Origin: Patescibacteria group bacterium
GTDB taxonomy: Bacteria; Patescibacteriota; Patescibacteriia; UBA10025; JAHIVO01
Assembly (NCBI GenBank): GCA_049325535.1
Contig: JBMOKY010000001.1
Span: 29,002 to 93,001 of the forward strand
Length of the DNA: 64,000 bases
Reading direction: 5' to 3'
Shown here piece by piece: positions 4,441 to 58,655 of the stretch. How positions within the stretch are numbered: the first letter of the stretch is position 1; each line of letters opens with the position of its first letter. The position numbers and the translations under genes were made by a program. Under the pieces are notes generated by a model that was not told the origin of the DNA, did not search any database, and was given only the letters and a program-made list of their open reading frames with translations.

Positions 4441-4549
4441 CGATCCTCCATGAAAAGAGCTTGGATATTGCTGCAGCCTACGCCATCCGAAGCAAGCTGT
4501 CAATATTTTTTGCAACCGGGGTTTTAATTTGGTACACTACAGGTCACCC

Positions 4550-5126
4550 TATGCATAAAGTCGTCTTCGATATCGAAACAAAAAATACATTTAGCGACAT
4601 CGGCAGTAGTAATCCCGGCAAGCTGGAGATATCACTGCTGGTCGTCTATGATTATGCCACGGACCAGTATTTGAGTTTTATGGAGCAGGATTTTTCCCGG
4701 CTGTGGAAAATTCTGGAAAATACGGATTTGATCATTGGTTTTAATTCAGACCATTTTGATATCCCGGTTTTGAACCGGTATTATCCCGGTGATTTAACCA
4801 AGATAAAGAGTCTGGATTTGCTCGATGCCCTATATCGTTCACTGGGGCGTCGCGTATCGCTCGATATGGTTGCCGCCGGGACACTCGGTACGCGAAAAAG
4901 CGGAAAGGGGCTCGATGCCATCCATTGGTGGAAAAATGGGGAAATCGATAAATTGAGAAAGTATTGCACCGATGATGTGCGGATTACCAAGGACATCTAT
5001 GAGTACGCACTCCGGCACGGTGAACTAAAGTATAAATTGGGTGGCGACGTGCATACGGTGCCGATTGATACACGGAGCTGGGAAGTGCGGGTACAGACGC
5101 CGCTGAATTACACGCTGCCTTTTTAA
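4550..5126 (+). CDS. RNase H-like 3'-5' exonuclease domain protein (DnaQ/PolB-exonuclease-like, COG3359-type)
   Basis: MHKVVFDIETKN...LIIGFNSDHFDIPVL...KYCTDDVRITKDIY resembles the Exo I (DxE) and Exo II/III motifs of DEDD-type exonucleases. Confidence 0.5.
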
Positions 5127-21002: not shown

Positions 21003-21030
21003 TTGACAATATCCCCCGGTTTCCTATACT
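21003..21030 (+). promoter_or_regulatory. Sigma70-like promoter TTGACA-16-TATACT for the rpsO-NYN-pnp operon
   Basis: TTGACA at 21003-21008 and TATACT at 21025-21030, about 90 nt upstream of rpsO. Confidence 0.55.
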
Positions 21031-21117: not shown

Positions 21118-21390
21118 ATGCTAACCAAGAAAGAAAAGGATAAGATAATTGAGAAGTACAAAATCCACGAGAAAGATACCGGGTCTGCTGAAGTGCAGAT
21201 CGCTATTTTGAGTGAGGAGATCAAGCGATTAACCGGTCATCTCAAGGATCACAAGAAAGATTTTTCCTCGAGACGCGGGTTGCTCCGGAAAGTTGGTCAG
21301 CGCCGCCGACTATTGCGGTATTTGGAAAAAGACAATCAGAAGAGCTACGACGATTTGACCGATAAGCTGAAATTAAAGAAGAAGTCATGA
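21118..21390 (+). CDS. rpsO: 30S ribosomal protein S15
   Basis: [69 protein letters not shown] is a canonical S15 sequence. Confidence 0.9.
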
Positions 21391-21905
21391 AATTGAAAGA
21401 TCAACGCGTCGGCGTATTCGTCGATGTCCAGAACCTCTACTATTCCGCCAAGAATCTGTATGGCGCAAAAGTTAATTTTGGCGAGGTGCTCAAAACCGCA
21501 GTTGCGGACCGACTGCTCATTCGGGCTATCGCCTACGTCATCAAGGCTGATAATGTTGATGAGCAGAAATTTTTCGAAGCGTTGGATAATCAGGGTTTCG
21601 AGGTGAAGATGAAGGATTTGCAGATATTCTACGGCGGTAATAAAAAGGGAGATTGGGATGTGGGCGTGGCTATTGATGCCGTCCGCCTCTCAAATAAACT
21701 GGATGTGGTGGTGTTGGTTACCGGCGATGGCGATTTTGTCCCACTGATCAATTATCTGAAGAATCTTGGTGTGTATGTTGAGGTGATTGCGTTTAGTGAA
21801 TCAACGTCCAGCAGCATCAAGACCCTCGCTGATGATTTTATCGATTTGAGTGCGGACAAGAAGAAATACCTTATCGCCAACCGCCGTCGGTTCATCGGAC
21901 GGTAG
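21387..21905 (+). CDS. NYN-domain (LabA/PIN-like) protein
   Basis: [15 protein letters not shown]...[14 protein letters not shown] is the NYN-domain signature. Confidence 0.7.
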
Positions 21906-22066: not shown

Positions 22067-24346
22067 ATGGCTCACATGCCACAACGGTTTACCACCGAGG
22101 TAGCCGGAAAAGAAATGATTTTTGAGTTCGGCAAGCTGGCCGGGCAGACGAATGGATCCTGTACCGTTCAGTATGGCGGCACAGTAGTTTTAGCTACTGC
22201 GGTTTTGAGTGATACCATCCGTGATGGCATCGACTATTTTCCGCTGATGGTTGACTATGAAGAGCGTCTCTATGCCGCAGGTAAGATCAAGGGCTCACGT
22301 TTTATCAAACGTGAAGGTCGTCCGACGGATGAGGCGGTATTGACCGCGCGCATGGTTGATCGATCGGTACGCCCGCTGTTTGACGAATCAATGCGTAACG
22401 ACATACAAGTCGTCATTACCGTACTGTCAGTCGACCAGGAAAATGATCCGGATATTGTTTCATTGATTGCCGCGTCAGCCGCTCTGTCCGTTTCCGATAT
22501 ACCCTGGAATGGTCCGGTAGCAGGGTTTCGCGTCGGTCGGGTCGGTGGTGAATGGGTGCTCAACCCTACCTATGACGCTCGTGACAAAAGCGATTTAGAT
22601 TTGGTCGTGGTCGGAACGGGCACGAAAATCGTAATGATTGAAGCGGGAGCGCATCAGGTACCTGAGGATGTGATGCAGCAAGCAATGGAATTTTGCTATC
22701 AGCATACCAAAAAAGTTGCTGATTTCATCGCGGACATGGCCAAACAGGTGGGTCGTCCGAAGATTGCCGTACCCGCCGAAGCGCTCGCTGATGAGGAAGC
22801 GGCGGCGTGGAAAAAGGTTGAAGAAAAAACAAATGCGTTTCTCGCTGATCGTTTGCCAGCCGTGTTTGCTATCAAAGGCAAAAAAGAACACAAGGCAGCC
22901 GTTGCCGCTATCAAAGATGACCTAGACGCCATGCTCAAGGCGGACAATGAAGTGAGCAAAGAGGCGCGCGCGAAAGCCCTCGGGTTGATTGATCAGGCAT
23001 ATTATCATGCTGCGCGTCGTCTGGTGCTGGATACTGATACTCGCGTAGACGGTCGCAAAACCGATGAATTACGGGAGATTTGGTGTGAGGCTGGTATACT
23101 TCCCCGTACACATGGTTCCGGCCTCTTCAATCGCGGTGAAACACAGGTACTGTCGATTGTGACGCTCGGTTCTCCTGGTGATGAGCAGGTTTTGGATACC
23201 ATGGAAGAAAGCGGGAAAAAACGCTATATGCATCATTACAATTTTCCGGGGTTCTCCGTCGGTGAAGCAAAACCAGTTCGCTCTCCGGGACGCCGTGAAA
23301 TCGGCCATGGAGCACTCGCCGAAAAAGCGCTTGAGCCGGTACTGCCACCGAAAGAAACGTTCCCCTACACCATCCGCGTCGTATCTGAGGTTTTGTCATC
23401 AAACGGATCGTCATCACAGGCGTCAGCCTGTGGTTCGACATTGGCGCTGATGGACGCAGGCGTGCCGATTTCCGATCCGGTTGCTGGCGTTGCTATTGGA
23501 TTGATTACGGATACGGATAATCCGTCACGCTATAAGATTCTAACTGATATTCAGGGTGTGGAAGACCATGATGGTGACATGGATTTCAAAGTAGCGGGTA
23601 CCGCCAAAGGAATTACTGCTATTCAGCTCGACGTCAAAGTAGACGGCATTGATTTTGGCATCATCGGGGATACATTGGCGGCGGCTCAGCGAGCGCGGAT
23701 GCAGATATTGGAGCGAATGACCGCGGTCATTGCCCAGCCGCGGGCCGACCTCTCCCCCTACGCTCCGCGTATTACGTCGATCAAGATTGACCCGGAGAAA
23801 ATTCGTGATGTCATCGGTAAGGGTGGAGAAACGATCAATAAGATCATCGAAGAGTGTGGGGGTGAAGATGTGATGAAGATAGATATCGAGGATGACGGTC
23901 TGGTGATGGTCACCTCAACCAATGGTGCCATGGCAGAAAAGGCCATGACCTGGATCAAAAATCTCACCCATGAGATTACTGTCGGGGAAATCTATGAAGG
24001 TACCGTGACGCGTATCGTCGCCGATCGTAACACGGGCAGTGAAATTGGAGCCATCGTCGAACTGTTGCCCGGCCAAGACGGGATGGTCCATATTTCCCAG
24101 TTCCGCCATGAGCGCATCAATCGCGTATCAGATGTGGTGAAAGAAGGCGACCATCTGAAAGTGAAGGTCATGGGGATCGACAAAGAAAAAGGCCGCATCG
24201 AATTGTCGCATAAAGTATTCCTTGAGGGTACTGCGGGTACCCCGTCGCCATCTCAGGATCGCGGACACGGGCATCCCGGAGGTGGCCGGGGAGATTCTCA
24301 TAACCGTAGCCGGTTTAATCGTCGACGACCCATCAATGATTATTAG
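22067..24346 (+). CDS. pnp: Polynucleotide phosphorylase with a Gly/Arg-rich C-terminal tail
   Basis: Two RNase PH domains, a KH domain (IDPEKIRDVIGKGGETINKI) and an S1 domain. The C-terminal ~40 aa are RGG/His-rich. Confidence 0.9.
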   Translation: MAHMPQRFTTEVAGKEMIFEFGKLAGQTNGSCTVQYGGTVVLATAVLSDTIRDGIDYFPLMVDYEERLYAAGKIKGSRFIKREGRPTDEAVLTARMVDRSVRPLFDESMRNDIQVVITVLSVDQENDPDIVSLIAASAALSVSDIPWNGPVAGFRVGRVGGEWVLNPTYDARDKSDLDLVVVGTGTKIVMIEAGAHQVPEDVMQQAMEFCYQHTKKVADFIADMAKQVGRPKIAVPAEALADEEAAAWKKVEEKTNAFLADRLPAVFAIKGKKEHKAAVAAIKDDLDAMLKADNEVSKEARAKALGLIDQAYYHAARRLVLDTDTRVDGRKTDELREIWCEAGILPRTHGSGLFNRGETQVLSIVTLGSPGDEQVLDTMEESGKKRYMHHYNFPGFSVGEAKPVRSPGRREIGHGALAEKALEPVLPPKETFPYTIRVVSEVLSSNGSSSQASACGSTLALMDAGVPISDPVAGVAIGLITDTDNPSRYKILTDIQGVEDHDGDMDFKVAGTAKGITAIQLDVKVDGIDFGIIGDTLAAAQRARMQILERMTAVIAQPRADLSPYAPRITSIKIDPEKIRDVIGKGGETINKIIEECGGEDVMKIDIEDDGLVMVTSTNGAMAEKAMTWIKNLTHEITVGEIYEGTVTRIVADRNTGSEIGAIVELLPGQDGMVHISQFRHERINRVSDVVKEGDHLKVKVMGIDKEKGRIELSHKVFLEGTAGTPSPSQDRGHGHPGGGRGDSHNRSRFNRRRPINDY

Positions 24347-24911
24347 TCTGAGCGGCAAACCAGGGTCCGGTAAGAGTACCATCGCCACCCGATTGGCGGC
24401 AGAGCTCGGTTTTGAACGTATTTACATCGGTGGCATGCGTCGTGCCATGGCGCGGACAAAAGGCATGACACTGCAGGAGTTCAATGCCTGGAGCGAAACG
24501 CATCCGGAGGGCGACAAGGAATTTGACGCATATATCACATCCGTCGCCTCCGGCAAAGATAATATCATCATCGAAAGCCGTACGGCTTTTCATTTCTTGC
24601 CACAGTCATTGAAAATATTCCTCGATGTCAGTGTCGAGGAAGGCGCGCGGCGGATTTGGGAGGCGCTCCAATCCGGCGCAAAGTCAGATCGAAATGAAGC
24701 GCCTGCCGTGGAACGGTATGAGGACGTGCTGGCATCGGTACGCGACCGGTTGCGCAGTGACGCGCTGCGTTATCGGAAGTATTATCAGATCGATATTTTT
24801 GATCCTGCGCAGTATGATCTGTTTCTGGATACCACCCAGCTCACCCCAGAACAGGAATACAGGCACGTGTATACGTTTGTGCGAGAAAAGCTCATGCATT
24901 TGGCTGGGTAA
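24336..24911 (+). CDS. cmk: Cytidylate kinase-like nucleoside monophosphate kinase
   Basis: P-loop ISLSGKPGSGKSTIATRLAAELGF and a cmk-like layout. Overlaps the pnp stop by 11 nt. Confidence 0.7.
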   Translation: MIISLSGKPGSGKSTIATRLAAELGFERIYIGGMRRAMARTKGMTLQEFNAWSETHPEGDKEFDAYITSVASGKDNIIIESRTAFHFLPQSLKIFLDVSVEEGARRIWEALQSGAKSDRNEAPAVERYEDVLASVRDRLRSDALRYRKYYQIDIFDPAQYDLFLDTTQLTPEQEYRHVYTFVREKLMHLAG

Positions 24912-25004
24912 TGTCCAGTCAAGCTGAGTCAAAATGGTGTGGATAAAAAATTACGGAATAATCGTAATTTTTTATTTTTATTTAATGTTAGCCAAAATGA
25001 ACTA

Positions 25005-25033
25005 TTGACAATGGGATGCGTATATGATATACT
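25005..25033 (+). promoter_or_regulatory. Near-consensus sigma70 promoter TTGACA-17-TATACT driving an orphan non-coding transcript
   Basis: TTGACA at 25005-25010, 17-nt spacer, TATACT at 25028-25033. No ORF follows. Confidence 0.5.
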
Positions 25034-25039
25034 GGTTTC

Positions 25040-25426
25040 ATACTGAAACTTGATAATTTATCCACAGGATAAAAACAAGGTAGTGGAAGCGGTATAGCCG
25101 AAATACTCGGATATATGCTTTCTCTACTTTTGGAGCGGTGCAGTTGGACATCGCGAATAAAAATCAAACAAAACAAAAAGGTACCTCTGTACGAAAAAAC
25201 AAAAAATGTAGAGAGGAAACCACAAGAAGGTAGAGAAATGCGCTTTTTGACATCCAACACAAAAGGCAAATAACGAGTACGCCATCTATGGCGCTTACTG
25301 CTCATATGTGTACCGGACGCGATCCGGTATAGATACGAGCGGTAAGCTCGCCTGGGCGCACCCGTCCAGGAGGTGTCGCATATAAAACAATATATTTTGG
25401 TGCGTTACACCTCCTTTTCAATTTCT
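25040..25426 (+). ncRNA. Candidate structured non-coding RNA (~390 nt) of unknown class, bounded by a consensus promoter and an intrinsic terminator
   Basis: There is no plausible ORF. Multiple local hairpins (TACCGGAcgcgaTCCGGTA, GAGCggtaaGCTC), a long-range complement (GCTTTCTCTAC at about 25112 with GTAGAGAAATGC at about 25228), and a terminal 12-bp GC-rich hairpin (25369-25414) followed by a T-run. Confidence 0.4.
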
Positions 25427-25562
25427 AAAAAAATCATATCTGAAATTCGCCGGCATTTTTTGGCACCAGTGGCGCGCCATAGTCGATAGTATAGAGCGAC
25501 GTTCGGCGCATTTTTTATTTTTAGTTACTTTTTATTGACGGGGATATATACTGAAAGTAACT

Positions 25563-26189
25563 ATGCAGCATCCAAACAGTAAACGGGAAAACGCATTGTA
25601 CCGTGCTGGGCATACATACGTAGCCGGTGCGGACGAAGCAGGGCGCGGGGCGTGGGCAGGGCCAATCGTCGCGGCAGCGGTTGTGCTGCCACCACGCGTG
25701 CGGATACCCGGTATCCGTGATTCAAAACAGTTGTCTCCGGCCATGCGCGAGCGACTCTCCGCGCGCATTATTGAGATTGCCGTTGCGTATCAGATCTGTG
25801 CCATCGCTCCGGTGGAGATTGACCGTGTCGGCATCGGTGAAGCAAATCGTGCAGCACTTCGCCACGCACTAACCACTATGGGGGTGGCGCCGACTTTTGC
25901 ATTAGTCGATGCTTTATCGATCGGGCGGATGCCATTTGGGACCGATGCCATTATCCGGGGTGATGCGCAGGTGGTCAGTATAGCCGCAGCTTCTATTGTA
26001 GCCAAAGTATCACGCGACCGTATGATGCGCTCACTTCATCAGCGGTATCCAAACTATGGATTTGTCCGACATAAGGGATATGGCACATTACAGCACCGGA
26101 TGGCGCTGCAACGGCATGGTATTTCCGCGGTGCACCGTCGATCGTTTGCTCCGATGGCGCAGATGCTCACCGGTTCTGGAGCGATGTGA
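25563..26189 (+). CDS. rnhB: Ribonuclease HII
   Basis: AGADEAGRGAWAGPIVAAAVVL...DSKQL motifs. Confidence 0.85.
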   Translation: MQHPNSKRENALYRAGHTYVAGADEAGRGAWAGPIVAAAVVLPPRVRIPGIRDSKQLSPAMRERLSARIIEIAVAYQICAIAPVEIDRVGIGEANRAALRHALTTMGVAPTFALVDALSIGRMPFGTDAIIRGDAQVVSIAAASIVAKVSRDRMMRSLHQRYPNYGFVRHKGYGTLQHRMALQRHGISAVHRRSFAPMAQMLTGSGAM

Positions 26190-55796: not shown

Positions 55797-55874
55797 TGGT
55801 CGGGGCGGCGAGACTCGAACTCGCGACCTCCTGCTCCCAAAGCAGGCGCGCTAGCCAACTGCGCTACGCCCCGA
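55797..55874 (-). tRNA. tRNA-Pro (anticodon TGG)
   Basis: Reverse complement CGGGGCGTAGCGCAGTTGGCTAGCGCGCCTGCTTTGGGAGCAGGAGGTCGCGAGTTCGAGTCTCGCCGCCCCGACCA. Confidence 0.7.
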
Positions 55875-55882
55875 TGAGGCGT

Positions 55883-56278
55883 TTATTTCTTTGTGCGGGG
55901 GAAGGCACCCCGGCGTCTGTCATACCGTTTTTCGTTGGTCTTGTACCCGTCATCAGATGACCAGCGAAGCCACAATCGTTTTTTAAATCCACCTTTGCGC
56001 ATCATATTTACTCTTTGGGCAGCCGCAACCTCACGGGTGGTTATCTTCTTTATTGATTTAATTTCCTCAATGACATCTATGACGTCGGCAATCTCACTGA
56101 CAAGTTCTGTACGAGAGGTGGCACGTTGCATACCACTCGCCTCTTCTTCAACTTTTTTGATGAGCTCTTGCTCGAATTTCTTTTTGGGCAGGACGCGCAC
56201 ATCATAATCAGCACCGGCGGCTTTGATGCGGCTTGGGATCCTGTCGCGAATGACTTTGTTGTAAAATATTTTTTTCAT
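55883..56278 (-). CDS. MazG-like all-alpha nucleoside-triphosphate pyrophosphohydrolase with a basic C-terminal tail
   Basis: KVIRDRIPSRI...ELIKKVEEE...EIADVIDVIEEI matches small MazG/HisE-like house-cleaning NTP-PPases. Confidence 0.6.
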   Translation of the reverse strand: MKKIFYNKVIRDRIPSRIKAAGADYDVRVLPKKKFEQELIKKVEEEASGMQRATSRTELVSEIADVIDVIEEIKSIKKITTREVAAAQRVNMMRKGGFKKRLWLRWSSDDGYKTNEKRYDRRRGAFPRTKK

Positions 56279-56403
56279 TCGCCTAATTGGAGAAAGGGTG
56301 GTGCCGAGTGCCAGAATCAGACCCCGTATGATTCCTCGTTTCACTCGTCATAACGGGGCAGGCTGGCGACGTACCAGATCATTTTCCAAATGTCTTTATC
56401 ATG

Positions 56404-56475
56404 TGCCGAGGGCCAGAATCGGACTGGCGACGCAAGGATTTTCAGTCCTTCGCTCTACCACTGAGCTACCTCGGC
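56404..56475 (-). tRNA. tRNA-Phe (anticodon GAA), unusual T-loop (TCCGATT)
   Basis: Reverse complement GCCGAGGTAGCTCAGTGGTAGAGCGAAGGACTGAAAATCCTTGCGTCGCCAGTCCGATTCTGGCCCTCGGCA. Confidence 0.6.
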
Positions 56476-56763
56476 TTGAAGAACCTCGGCACATGATAAA
56501 GAAAGTTATCAATGATTTTCAGTCCGGAGACCTGCCCCGCCATAGCTCACGAAGTGAGCGGTGCGGGGTCTACCACTGAGCTACCTCGGCGCGGGCCGTC
56601 CCCAGCATGAGTGAGTATTATTTTTTAAAGCCACTGGTGAGCGATCGAGTATAAGATCTTTCGCTTACGCTCAGGACGGCACCCGGGACCTCGTCATTAT
56701 CCTGTACTATACTCACTGCGTTTGCAAGTACAGGACGAGTCAGTGACGTTACCACCCCCAGAG

Positions 56764-56837
56764 TGGGCGACTCAGGAATCGAACCTGAGACCTCGTCATT
56801 ATCAGTGACGCGCTCTAACCATCTGAGCTAGTCGCCC
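56764..56837 (-). tRNA. tRNA-Ile (anticodon GAT), immediately downstream of the 16S rRNA
   Basis: Reverse complement GGGCGACTAGCTCAGATGGTTAGAGCGCGTCACTGATAATGACGAGGTCTCAGGTTCGATTCCTGAGTCGCCCA. Confidence 0.7.
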
Positions 56838-57136
56838 ACTCTGGGAGGGTATTGTGAAAGCGCTCCTGGTCCCGTATCAGGCGTAGCCATGGTACGGGAT
56901 AACCATCTGAGCTCGTCGCCCCAAAAAACAAACAAAAAACACAGCTATTATTGACTAGATTCTATCAGGTTATGACGAAATTGCAACGGCATAGCTGTGC
57001 TGCTTGGTGGAGGGGTCCCTTAACACCTGAAAAGCGATAAGAATTTGCCAGAGTTCCGTTATGTTCATCCCGCCATTGCTGGCGTAGATGGACGACCGTT
57101 TAATCTAAGATTTGCATCTTAGAAAAATTCTCCTTA

Positions 57137-58655
<1,519 letters not shown>

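Follow-up and report, generated by a model that had tools for sequence, protein, structure and literature searches.

Between the genes for a cytidylate-kinase-like protein (cmk) and RNase HII (rnhB), on a 64,000-nucleotide stretch of contig JBMOKY010000001.1 from a Patescibacteria group bacterium (the whole stretch is called the window below), there is very probably a real, stand-alone gene for a non-coding RNA (ncRNA) of a new family, located at 25040–25419 on the + strand. We propose it as a candidate for a new class of bacterial RNA, a previously uncatalogued family with no detectable relation to known ones. The locus shows the features that are generally expected of a gene for a structured ncRNA, namely a promoter and a terminator of its own, conservation, compensatory base changes and no conserved open reading frame (ORF). 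An earlier note on this DNA had proposed either a lineage-specific ncRNA or a divergent form of a known RNA. The first proposal is supported by conservation, covariation and the lack of both an ORF and an Rfam match, whereas the second failed every feature test that could be run.

Promoter and terminator of the RNA gene

The gap between cmk and rnhB (24912–25562) is 651 bp long and has a GC content of 0.27–0.41, compared to ~0.5–0.6 in the flanking genes, in line with the AT-rich, non-coding gap of ~650 bp described previously. Two elements delimit the RNA gene within it:

25005–25033, + strand: sigma-70-type promoter with −35 TTGACA, a 17-nt spacer and the extended −10 TGATATACT (TATACT with TG)
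25369–25419, + strand: intrinsic terminator, consisting of the GGAGGUGUCGCA...UGCGUUACACCUCC hairpin (25369–25415) followed by UUUUC

Both had been spotted in the earlier note, as a near-perfect sigma70 promoter and as a 12-bp hairpin followed by a T-run, and both held up on closer analysis. The promoter agrees with the consensus at 11 of 12 positions and has the TG of an extended −10 in addition; it is the top promoter-like site in the 2.5 kb that we scanned, and the pattern TTGACA-N14-TGATATACT has a single exact match in the window. Judging from the spacing, transcription would start near A25040. The promoter is kept in relatives. The terminator hairpin lies ~335 nt downstream of the promoter and is made up of an 8-bp GGAGGUGU/ACACCUCC stem and an inner stem of 4–5 bp (~12–13 bp in all) with an AU-rich apical part. 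Its minimum free energy (MFE) is −20.3 kcal/mol, with z = −5.0, and a simple terminator scan missed it because the loop is larger than the 8-nt limit of the scan. A GC-rich hairpin with a U-run is found at the 3′ end of every family member, and in the related locus L084 the terminator has changed in a compensatory manner, from U-A to C-G and from CGCA/UGCG to CGAA/UUCG.

A separate observation on the terminator is that its stem in the clade of the window species, GGAGGUG...CACCUCCUUUU, consists of a Shine-Dalgarno sequence on one side and, on the other, a copy of the anti-Shine-Dalgarno sequence at the 16S 3′ end. This pairing is probably incidental, because it is kept in L084 and L087 and not in the other subtypes.

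Distribution of the RNA family

About 23 distinct Patescibacteria sequences, from Komeilibacteria-like metagenome-assembled genomes (MAGs) and from metagenome contigs, carry the RNA, whose length is 370–430 nt across the family and ~380 nt in the window. The locus is always found one gene downstream of pnp, and occurs in two arrangements. In the A-type, to which the window belongs, the gene order is pnp-cmk-RNA-rnhB-methyltransferase-yraN-nusA, and in the B-type the order is pnp, a gene for a 437-aa protein without Pfam match, the RNA, a dksA-like gene and lspA.

The order pnp-cmk-gap-rnhB was also seen in two other species, whose contigs were obtained through exact-protein look-up. The RNase HII proteins of these species are only 62–63% identical, and the gap is far better conserved than the flanking proteins, with long invariant runs broken by changes that compensate each other in hairpins. 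The earlier note had suggested aligning the orthologous region of relatives, and this alignment indeed revealed many compensatory changes. The more distant relatives L002–L005 have a homologous promoter and a predicted non-coding transcript of ~420 nt downstream of pnp, followed by a gene of the dksA/traR zinc-finger type. Scanning metagenomes with the shared promoter pattern resulted in 26 loci, 21 with the RNA and 5 that are promoters of protein genes, and a hidden Markov model (HMM) of the family added a single further member, L001, which has a different promoter context. The L001 contig (JAIWBS010000016.1, RNA at ~4490–4950) is labelled Pirellulales; its pnp is Patescibacteria-like (60% identity to that of the window), and the contig is probably mis-binned.

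Other searches added no members. With blastn and nhmmer from the window, only the promoter region was matched in distant relatives, and clade-specific HMMs gave no cross-detection between subtypes. A descriptor search combined with the covariance model (CM) R1 over 75 pnp loci of other Patescibacteria and other phyla returned no further members; one descriptor match, in L008, was coding sequence. In viral contigs, the A-rich pattern, which is too unspecific, had at least 120 matches, none of them confirmed by the CM (the best score in 700 kb of decoys was 19.8 bits). The family is, as far as sampled, confined to the Komeilibacteria-like lineage of Patescibacteria, also known as the Candidate Phyla Radiation (CPR).

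Architecture of the RNA

The inferred transcript (~25040–25419) folds much better than shuffled sequences, with z-scores of −9.8 (+ strand) and −7.2 (− strand), and the core alone has z = −5.2. From 5′ to 3′, the core is composed of hairpin H1, then helix H2, which closes a junction containing H3, a (YAAAAA)n tract, H4 and H4b, and finally hairpin K:

25085–25122, + strand: H1, a 5′ hairpin (GGAAGCGGUAUAGCCGA...UCGGAUAUAUGCUUUC) present in both the MFE and the consensus folds
25119–25127, + strand: 5′ strand of H2 (UUUCUCUAC), pairing with 25230–25238 and followed by the conserved ACU(G) of the junction
25135–25154, + strand: hairpin H3 (GCGGUG-CAGUUGGA-CAUCGC), inside H2, with a loop (25143–25148, GUUGGA) that kisses the loop of K
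25155–25179, + strand: A-rich tract (GAAUAAAAAUCAAACAAAACAAAAA), conserved and single-stranded
25180–25221, + strand: hairpin H4 (GGUACCUCUGUAC...GUAGAGAGGAAACC), far longer in the B-type
25220–25230, + strand: junction segment with the small hairpin H4b (CCAC...GG) and, at its end, the invariant GGU
25230–25238, + strand: 3′ strand of H2 (GUAGAGAAA)
25242–25267, + strand: hairpin K (GCUUUUUG-ACAUCCAACA-CAAAAGGC), directly 3′ of H2, with a loop (25253–25258, UCCAAC) that pairs with the loop of H3
25274–25368, + strand: 3′ domain, with nested long hairpins that include a CUGCUC...GAGCGG helix and CCUGGGCGCACCCGUCCAGG

The A-rich tract consists of 3–5 YAAAAA repeats followed by GG in all parts of the family, is unpaired in every predicted fold and provides the most conserved primary-sequence columns of the family alignments. 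The junction has two sets of invariant nucleotides, ACUG and GGU, the latter being present in 22 of 22 sequences. The 3′ domain is conserved in the A-type and different in the B-type.

The CC that precedes H4b has two mutually exclusive partners, either the GG at the 3′ end of the A-rich tract or the invariant GGU (25180–25182, 25219–25221 and 25228–25230). In the core sequences compared by eye, both pairings appear to covary; for instance, GG is changed to GA together with a change of CC to UC in L088 and L112. Such competing pairings may give the junction two states.

Covariation in the core

A whole-core MAFFT alignment (A5) did not bring H2, H3 and K of the two subtypes into the same columns and was excluded from pair counting. 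We therefore relied on a curated segment alignment of 23 sequences (A6), in which H2 and H4b were positioned by fixed anchors and H3 and K were parsed by hand, and on a CM built from the B-type cores only. A6 is fitted to the structure as a result of the hand parsing, and all pair counts for the individual core helices below are to be read with this in mind.

Helix H2 (8–9 bp) is the long-range pair between the surroundings of 25112 and 25228 to which the earlier note had drawn attention, and it covaries across relatives. In segments anchored on AC and GU, pairing extends to 8–9 of 9 positions in almost every member despite their differing sequences (CUCUAC/GUAGAG, CAUUUUAC/GUAAAAUG, CUCCUUAC/GUGAGGGG and GCUUCAC/GUGGAGU are among the variants), and both sides have changed in 7 of 8 pairs. 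The same applies to all 5 pairs of the H3 stem, in which 98% of cells are paired, and to 4 of 4 pairs of the K stem. H4b is weak in the clade of the window and clear elsewhere (CCAC/GUGG, CCAU/AUGG, CCGU/ACGG), with 84% of cells paired and double changes in 2 of 4 pairs. The 6-bp kissing helix between H3 and K has double changes in 6 of 6 pairs, and 97.8% of its cells are paired. Its variants include GUUGGA/UCCAAC (window), GUUGGC/GCCAAC, CCAUGA/UCAUGG, CCUUAC/GUAAGG and CCGAC/GUCGG, as well as CUUGAC/GUCAAG, CUUGAU/AUCAAG, CCUGAC/GUCAGG and ACCGGC/GCCGGU.

Taken over all of A6, 94.2% of cells form standard pairs, compared to 66.9% in shuffles (0 of 500 shuffles reached the observed value), and sliding the partners by 1–3 columns left only 35–48% of cells paired. 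Both sides have changed in 24 of 27 pairs, compared to a shuffle mean of 18.9. The G-U pairs appear when the + strand is read, consistent with the direction of promoter and terminator.

Consensus folds of closely related sequences extend the covariation to the remaining parts of the RNA. Among the three closest species, 17 of 112 consensus pairs are compensatory, including pairs in the 3′ domain (columns 244–336). Among four species of the L002–L005 type, 41 of 107 are compensatory; the B-type equivalent of H1 has compensatory changes (columns 41–82), and the long B-type H4 has numerous compensatory pairs (columns 162–242).

The B-type CM, which uses an RNAalifold consensus structure, provides a check that is independent of the hand parsing. 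It finds the RNA of the window at 25116–25263 with 33.8 bits and an E-value of 2e-5, along with 7 other left-out sequences (6 of A-type and L001) in 837 kb. An HMM of the B-type, which uses sequence only, missed the A-type that the CM reached, and the structure therefore carries the signal.

Comparison with coding sequences and known RNA families

None of the ORFs is conserved: those of the members are short and differ in position, strand and frame, and the reading frame across the A-rich tract is not conserved, differing for example between the window and L093 when the core sequences are compared by eye. The earlier note had named a conserved small ORF as evidence that would speak against a structured RNA, and none was found; since the ORFs are not kept in place, strand or frame, the hypothesis of a small protein was rejected.

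With Rfam 15 at gathering thresholds, a search of the whole window gave no match for the RNA region. Relaxing the threshold to E ≤ 10, for 771 nt of the window, for the RNA alone in the window and L003, and for 8 further loci, gave only noise, in the form of hairpins of miRNAs and small RNAs and a group II D1D4 match at E = 5.6 on the wrong strand. The CM scan that had been suggested in the earlier note was thus negative even at this level.

These results bear on the possibility that the RNA is a highly divergent form of RNase P RNA, transfer-messenger RNA (tmRNA), 6S RNA or signal recognition particle (SRP) RNA. The length of ~380 nt would fit RNase P RNA or tmRNA, the promoter is strong and of housekeeping type, and none of the four RNAs was found elsewhere in the window, where rnpB, for one, had no Rfam match. 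Moreover, some RNase P RNAs of CPR bacteria escape standard models, and in 10 of 35 circular CPR genomes they were detected only after thresholds had been lowered (PMC8172020). Even so, RF00010 still picked up the diverged RNase P RNAs of that study, which had retained the conserved features (PMC8172020), while our RNA had no match to RF00010 or RF00011 at E ≤ 10 in any of the sequences searched at this threshold. It resembles RNase P RNA in its size class (~350–400 nt), its housekeeping-type signals and its multi-helix junction with long-range pairings. It differs in lacking CR-I and CR-V (P4): with 2–3 mismatches allowed, CR-I (GAGGAAAGUCC) and CR-V (ACAGAAnnCGGCUUA) were each found in 1 of 22 members, a different member in each case, which is the level expected by chance. 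H1 and H2 leave no space for P4 between them, H2, as the enclosing helix, spans the core only, and the A-rich segment forms a joiner of 25–30 nt.

A tmRNA would likewise have a similar size (~360 nt), long-range pairings of pseudoknot type and an A-rich single-stranded segment. ARAGORN did not detect one, however, and all 22 members lack the T-loop of the T-arm (GGUUCGAAUCC) and the tmRNA 5′ motif. In MFE and consensus folds, the two ends of the RNA do not pair with each other, which leaves no acceptor stem with a 3′ CCA and no tRNA-like domain, and there is no tag reading frame conserved in position, strand or frame. The unpaired ends are equally incompatible with the rod of 6S RNA: the folds are multi-branched without a closing stem between the 5′ and 3′ ends, the length is 370–430 nt as opposed to ~160–200 nt, and RF00013 had no match at E ≤ 10. 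Lastly, the SRP domain IV motif is missing in 22 of 22 members, and no SRP model matched. The earlier note had recognised no hallmarks of these four RNAs, and this impression proved correct, each of the sequence motifs being missing in at least 21 of 22 members. We therefore consider a divergent member of one of these universal families to be highly improbable.

DnaA boxes and an upstream motif

Three further elements surround the promoter:

24938–24946, − strand: perfect DnaA box, TTATCCACA on the − strand and TGTGGATAA on the + strand; the −10 ends 95 nt downstream of it
24983–24992, + strand: conserved motif TAATGTTAGC, a half-palindrome (CTAAT/TTAG) exactly 12 nt upstream of the −35
25058–25066, + strand: another perfect DnaA box (TTATCCACA), early in the transcribed stretch, at ~+25 counted from where the −10 ends

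The two boxes are the only perfect TTATCCACA sites in the window, lie 120 bp apart and flank the RNA promoter. Of 22 family members, 20 have a perfect TGTGGATAA 95–128 nt ahead of their −10; the pattern by which members were retrieved did not include this upstream box. DnaA boxes were noted in the window and at the same positions in L002–L005, L084, L087, L091–L096, L098, L101, L103, L105, L111 and L112. The second box-like 9-mer is TTATNCACA-like, forward and at +25 in the A-type, and is TGTTGATAA, reverse and at +6 in the B-type. As its orientation differs between the subtypes, it is probably a site acting at the DNA level rather than an RNA motif. From the position and conservation of these boxes, we find it about equally credible that DnaA controls the RNA promoter and that it does not.

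The boxes also raise the question of whether the locus is primarily a DnaA-binding site in the DNA, either oriC or a titration or reactivation site, with the RNA features being secondary. That the only two perfect boxes of the window flank an AT-rich stretch, and that the upstream one is kept in so many members, would be in keeping with such a locus. Against it, the number of boxes is only 2–3, they lie outside the structured core, and the compensatory pairs, the G-U pairs and the covariation of the kissing helix are inexplicable at the DNA level. The GC skew is positive throughout 1–64 kb without a sign change at 25 kb, and gene orientation is not divergent, the genes on both sides being on the + strand; the uniform skew and the co-oriented genes rule out oriC. 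A DNA-level function as the main role of the locus thus appears extremely unlikely.

The motif TAATGTTAGC has the consensus TAATNYTAGC and is palindromic (GCTAAT-N-TTAGC) in some members. It was seen at the same fixed spacing in 7 independently found loci (window, L084, L087 and L002–L005) and was later made part of the metagenome search pattern, so that its presence in L088–L113 is by construction; it is missing in L001. It could be an UP element or the binding site of a regulator.

Possible modes of action

The gene downstream of the RNA belongs to no constant class: A-type loci have rnhB at this place, and B-type loci a dksA/traR zinc-finger gene. Because of this difference we take the RNA not to be linked in cis to its neighbour, and the lack of a constant neighbouring gene points to action in trans; the quality of the promoter, in turn, suggests high expression. 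The explanation that we prefer as a whole, to which we give an even chance of being right, is that of an RNA of a new family that is gated by DnaA and acts in trans as a ribonucleoprotein (RNP), a scaffold or a sponge.

In this model, the RNA would be abundant, and its junction, locked by the kissing loops, would display the A-rich single strand as a platform for protein binding. Each 6-nt repeat amounts to two A-R-N triplets, so that the tract would read as a perfect (A-R-N)n and might suit Hfq-like proteins or, equally well, S1, KH or OB-fold proteins or other oligomeric binders of single strands. DnaA would gate transcription through the upstream box (about −95 to −128) and the downstream one (+6 or +25), most likely as a repressor that acts by occlusion or as a roadblock, and would in this way couple the level of the RNA to the state of the replication initiator. 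The protein-platform part of this model is held only tentatively, and seems to us possible rather than probable.

Among known systems, CrcZ/CrcY, CsrB/RsmZ and 6S RNA are comparable in that they are stand-alone genes of ~350–400 nt with a strong promoter and a terminator and act in trans, as is proposed here, and the single-stranded (YAAAAA)n, read as (A-R-N)n, is reminiscent of CrcZ and of the sites bound by the distal face of Hfq. The similarity has its limits. Sponge RNAs have 5–20 dispersed binding sites, while our RNA has one contiguous unpaired tract with 3–5 tandem YAAAAA units; a covarying junction with a kissing fold is unneeded by sponges, and there is no similarity in sequence or to the models of these RNAs. 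Unlike 6S RNA, ours is not rod-shaped. No enrichment of GGA in loops was noticed by eye, and neither Hfq nor CsrA was detected in the window in a weak test with E. coli query sequences. Literature searches on CPR ncRNAs, and on Hfq or CsrA in CPR, gave no relevant result other than the study of diverged RNase P RNAs (PMC8172020).

Another possibility is a cis-acting leader, in the form of a giant riboswitch or attenuator whose junction would respond to a ligand or factor and thereby govern read-through into the rnhB...nusA-infB or the dksA-lspA operon. Lysine and cobalamin riboswitches have a multi-helix junction with a kissing loop, and our RNA shares with these aptamers a junction with ~6-bp kissing, invariant junction nucleotides and a possible alternative pairing, the mutually exclusive junction pairings appearing to covary by eye. 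Furthermore, all genes are on the same strand, and in L084 and L087 the terminator is only ~35 nt ahead of rnhB. On the other hand, the RNA is 2–3 times longer than these aptamers, at 370–430 nt it far exceeds known leaders, the kissing partner lies outside the junction, and no riboswitch family matched at E ≤ 10. The downstream genes differ in family and have promoter-like sites of their own, the RNA ends in an independent terminator from which the core is separated by 100–150 nt of variable 3′ domain, and no antiterminator is evident. A leader function thus seems quite improbable.

The main rival to trans action as a protein platform is a role that depends mainly on the fold of the RNA itself, as a ribozyme or as an RNA-only particle similar to ROOL, GOLLD or OLE. 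Large structured RNAs of bacteria are often catalytic or assembly-forming. The RNA described here is large and ornate, with ~10 helices, a multi-helix junction, a covarying 6-bp loop-loop pairing and invariant nucleotides (ACUG, GGU) at the junctions. The loops of H3 and K might pair between molecules, head to tail, and the A-rich tract might serve in tertiary packing. The kissing loops are compatible with intermolecular pairing, and because they are complementary to each other and not to themselves, sequence alone cannot separate kissing within a molecule from kissing between molecules. With OLE, ROOL, GOLLD and raiA motif RNA, our RNA has in common a large size, many helices, covarying long-range tertiary pairings, a restriction to certain lineages and a gene context that does not reveal function. 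It differs from them in having no Rfam match, in its host phylum (Patescibacteria), in its fixed housekeeping locus by pnp as opposed to a phage or tRNA context, and in its DnaA-box-flanked promoter. Against such a role also speak the lack of any Rfam relative among known ribozymes and large RNAs, the absence of any substrate or reaction that suggests itself, the difference of the 3′ domain between subtypes, and the long, strictly single-stranded repeat, which is more typical of a site that binds a partner. We regard this alternative as unlikely.

Several points weigh against the explanation by a trans-acting, DnaA-gated RNA that displays a protein-binding strand. The start, the 3′ end and the abundance of the transcript are inferred from the DNA; the covariation counts rest on a hand-curated alignment fitted to the structure; and the apparent promoter conservation and taxonomic range are biased, because most members were retrieved via the promoter pattern. 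No constant neighbouring gene points to a protein partner, and a single A-rich tract per molecule makes a poor sponge compared to CsrB or CrcZ with their many sites. A fold this elaborate points to a role beyond passive display, and the alternative pairing in the junction hints at a switch that the protein-platform model leaves unexplained. In a bolder version, the RNA would represent a new class of large, ornate RNA specific to a CPR lineage, with its synthesis wired to DnaA and with a two-state core of junction and kissing loops, in which the GG of the A-rich tract and the invariant GGU compete for one CC. It would act as a regulator or enzyme that couples the replication state to RNA metabolism or translation in organisms with a very small set of protein regulators; we consider this version rather doubtful.

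Neighbouring genes and other features of the window

The RNA gene is flanked by:

24336–24911, + strand: cytidylate-kinase-like gene (cmk), on the upstream side of the gap
25563–26189, + strand: RNase HII gene (rnhB), on the downstream side of the gap

The first 11 nt of cmk (24336–24346) are shared with the end of pnp, and the same overlap is found in L081, L084 and L087, which suggests translational coupling. At the other side of the gap, rnhB looks almost leaderless: a hexamer resembling a −10, TATACT, ends 8–11 nt ahead of its ATG, and no Shine-Dalgarno sequence is evident (25549–25565 in the window, ~2480–2503 in L084). The window species has ~110 nt between the RNA terminator and rnhB (within 25420–25562) that are missing from L084 and L087. 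A second hairpin with a T-run in this interval, at 25474–25522, was rejected as not significant, with z = −0.4 compared to shuffles, and is missing in relatives. A second strong promoter-like site, TTGACA-16-TATACT, is located at 21003–21030, ahead of a gene for an NYN-domain protein (21387–21905) and pnp; this is presumably the site that the earlier note had referred to as the rpsO promoter.

In all, 11 tRNA genes and a bacterial 16S gene are located in the window. On the − strand, at 55797–58654, the 16S rRNA gene precedes tRNA-Ile, tRNA-Phe and tRNA-Pro, and because no 23S gene is present within the 64 kb, the rRNA genes seem to be unlinked, as has been reported for many CPR bacteria (PMC8172020). 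The polynucleotide phosphorylase (PNPase) encoded by pnp is at most ~60% identical to that of species-representative genomes, and its best matches are in Patescibacteria MAGs, including Candidatus Komeilibacteria.

Significance of the RNA family

Large, intricately folded bacterial RNAs are rare, and they have repeatedly proved to be ribozymes, cores of RNPs or unexpected assemblies. The family described here offers a new fold, with a 6-bp kissing interaction defined by covariation and a possible switch in the junction, which is accessible to structural methods. Gaps of this kind in CPR MAGs are currently left unannotated, and the alignment and the model from this analysis can be used for annotating them. 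Judging from the conserved DnaA boxes, replication initiation may be linked to an ncRNA, a connection that has apparently not been described before. The genomes of CPR bacteria are ~1 Mb in size, contain hardly any non-coding DNA and encode few known regulators. As these genomes are so sparing, and as the promoter is among the best in the window, a conserved RNA gene of ~400 nt is likely to be important to the still poorly understood biology of CPR bacteria.

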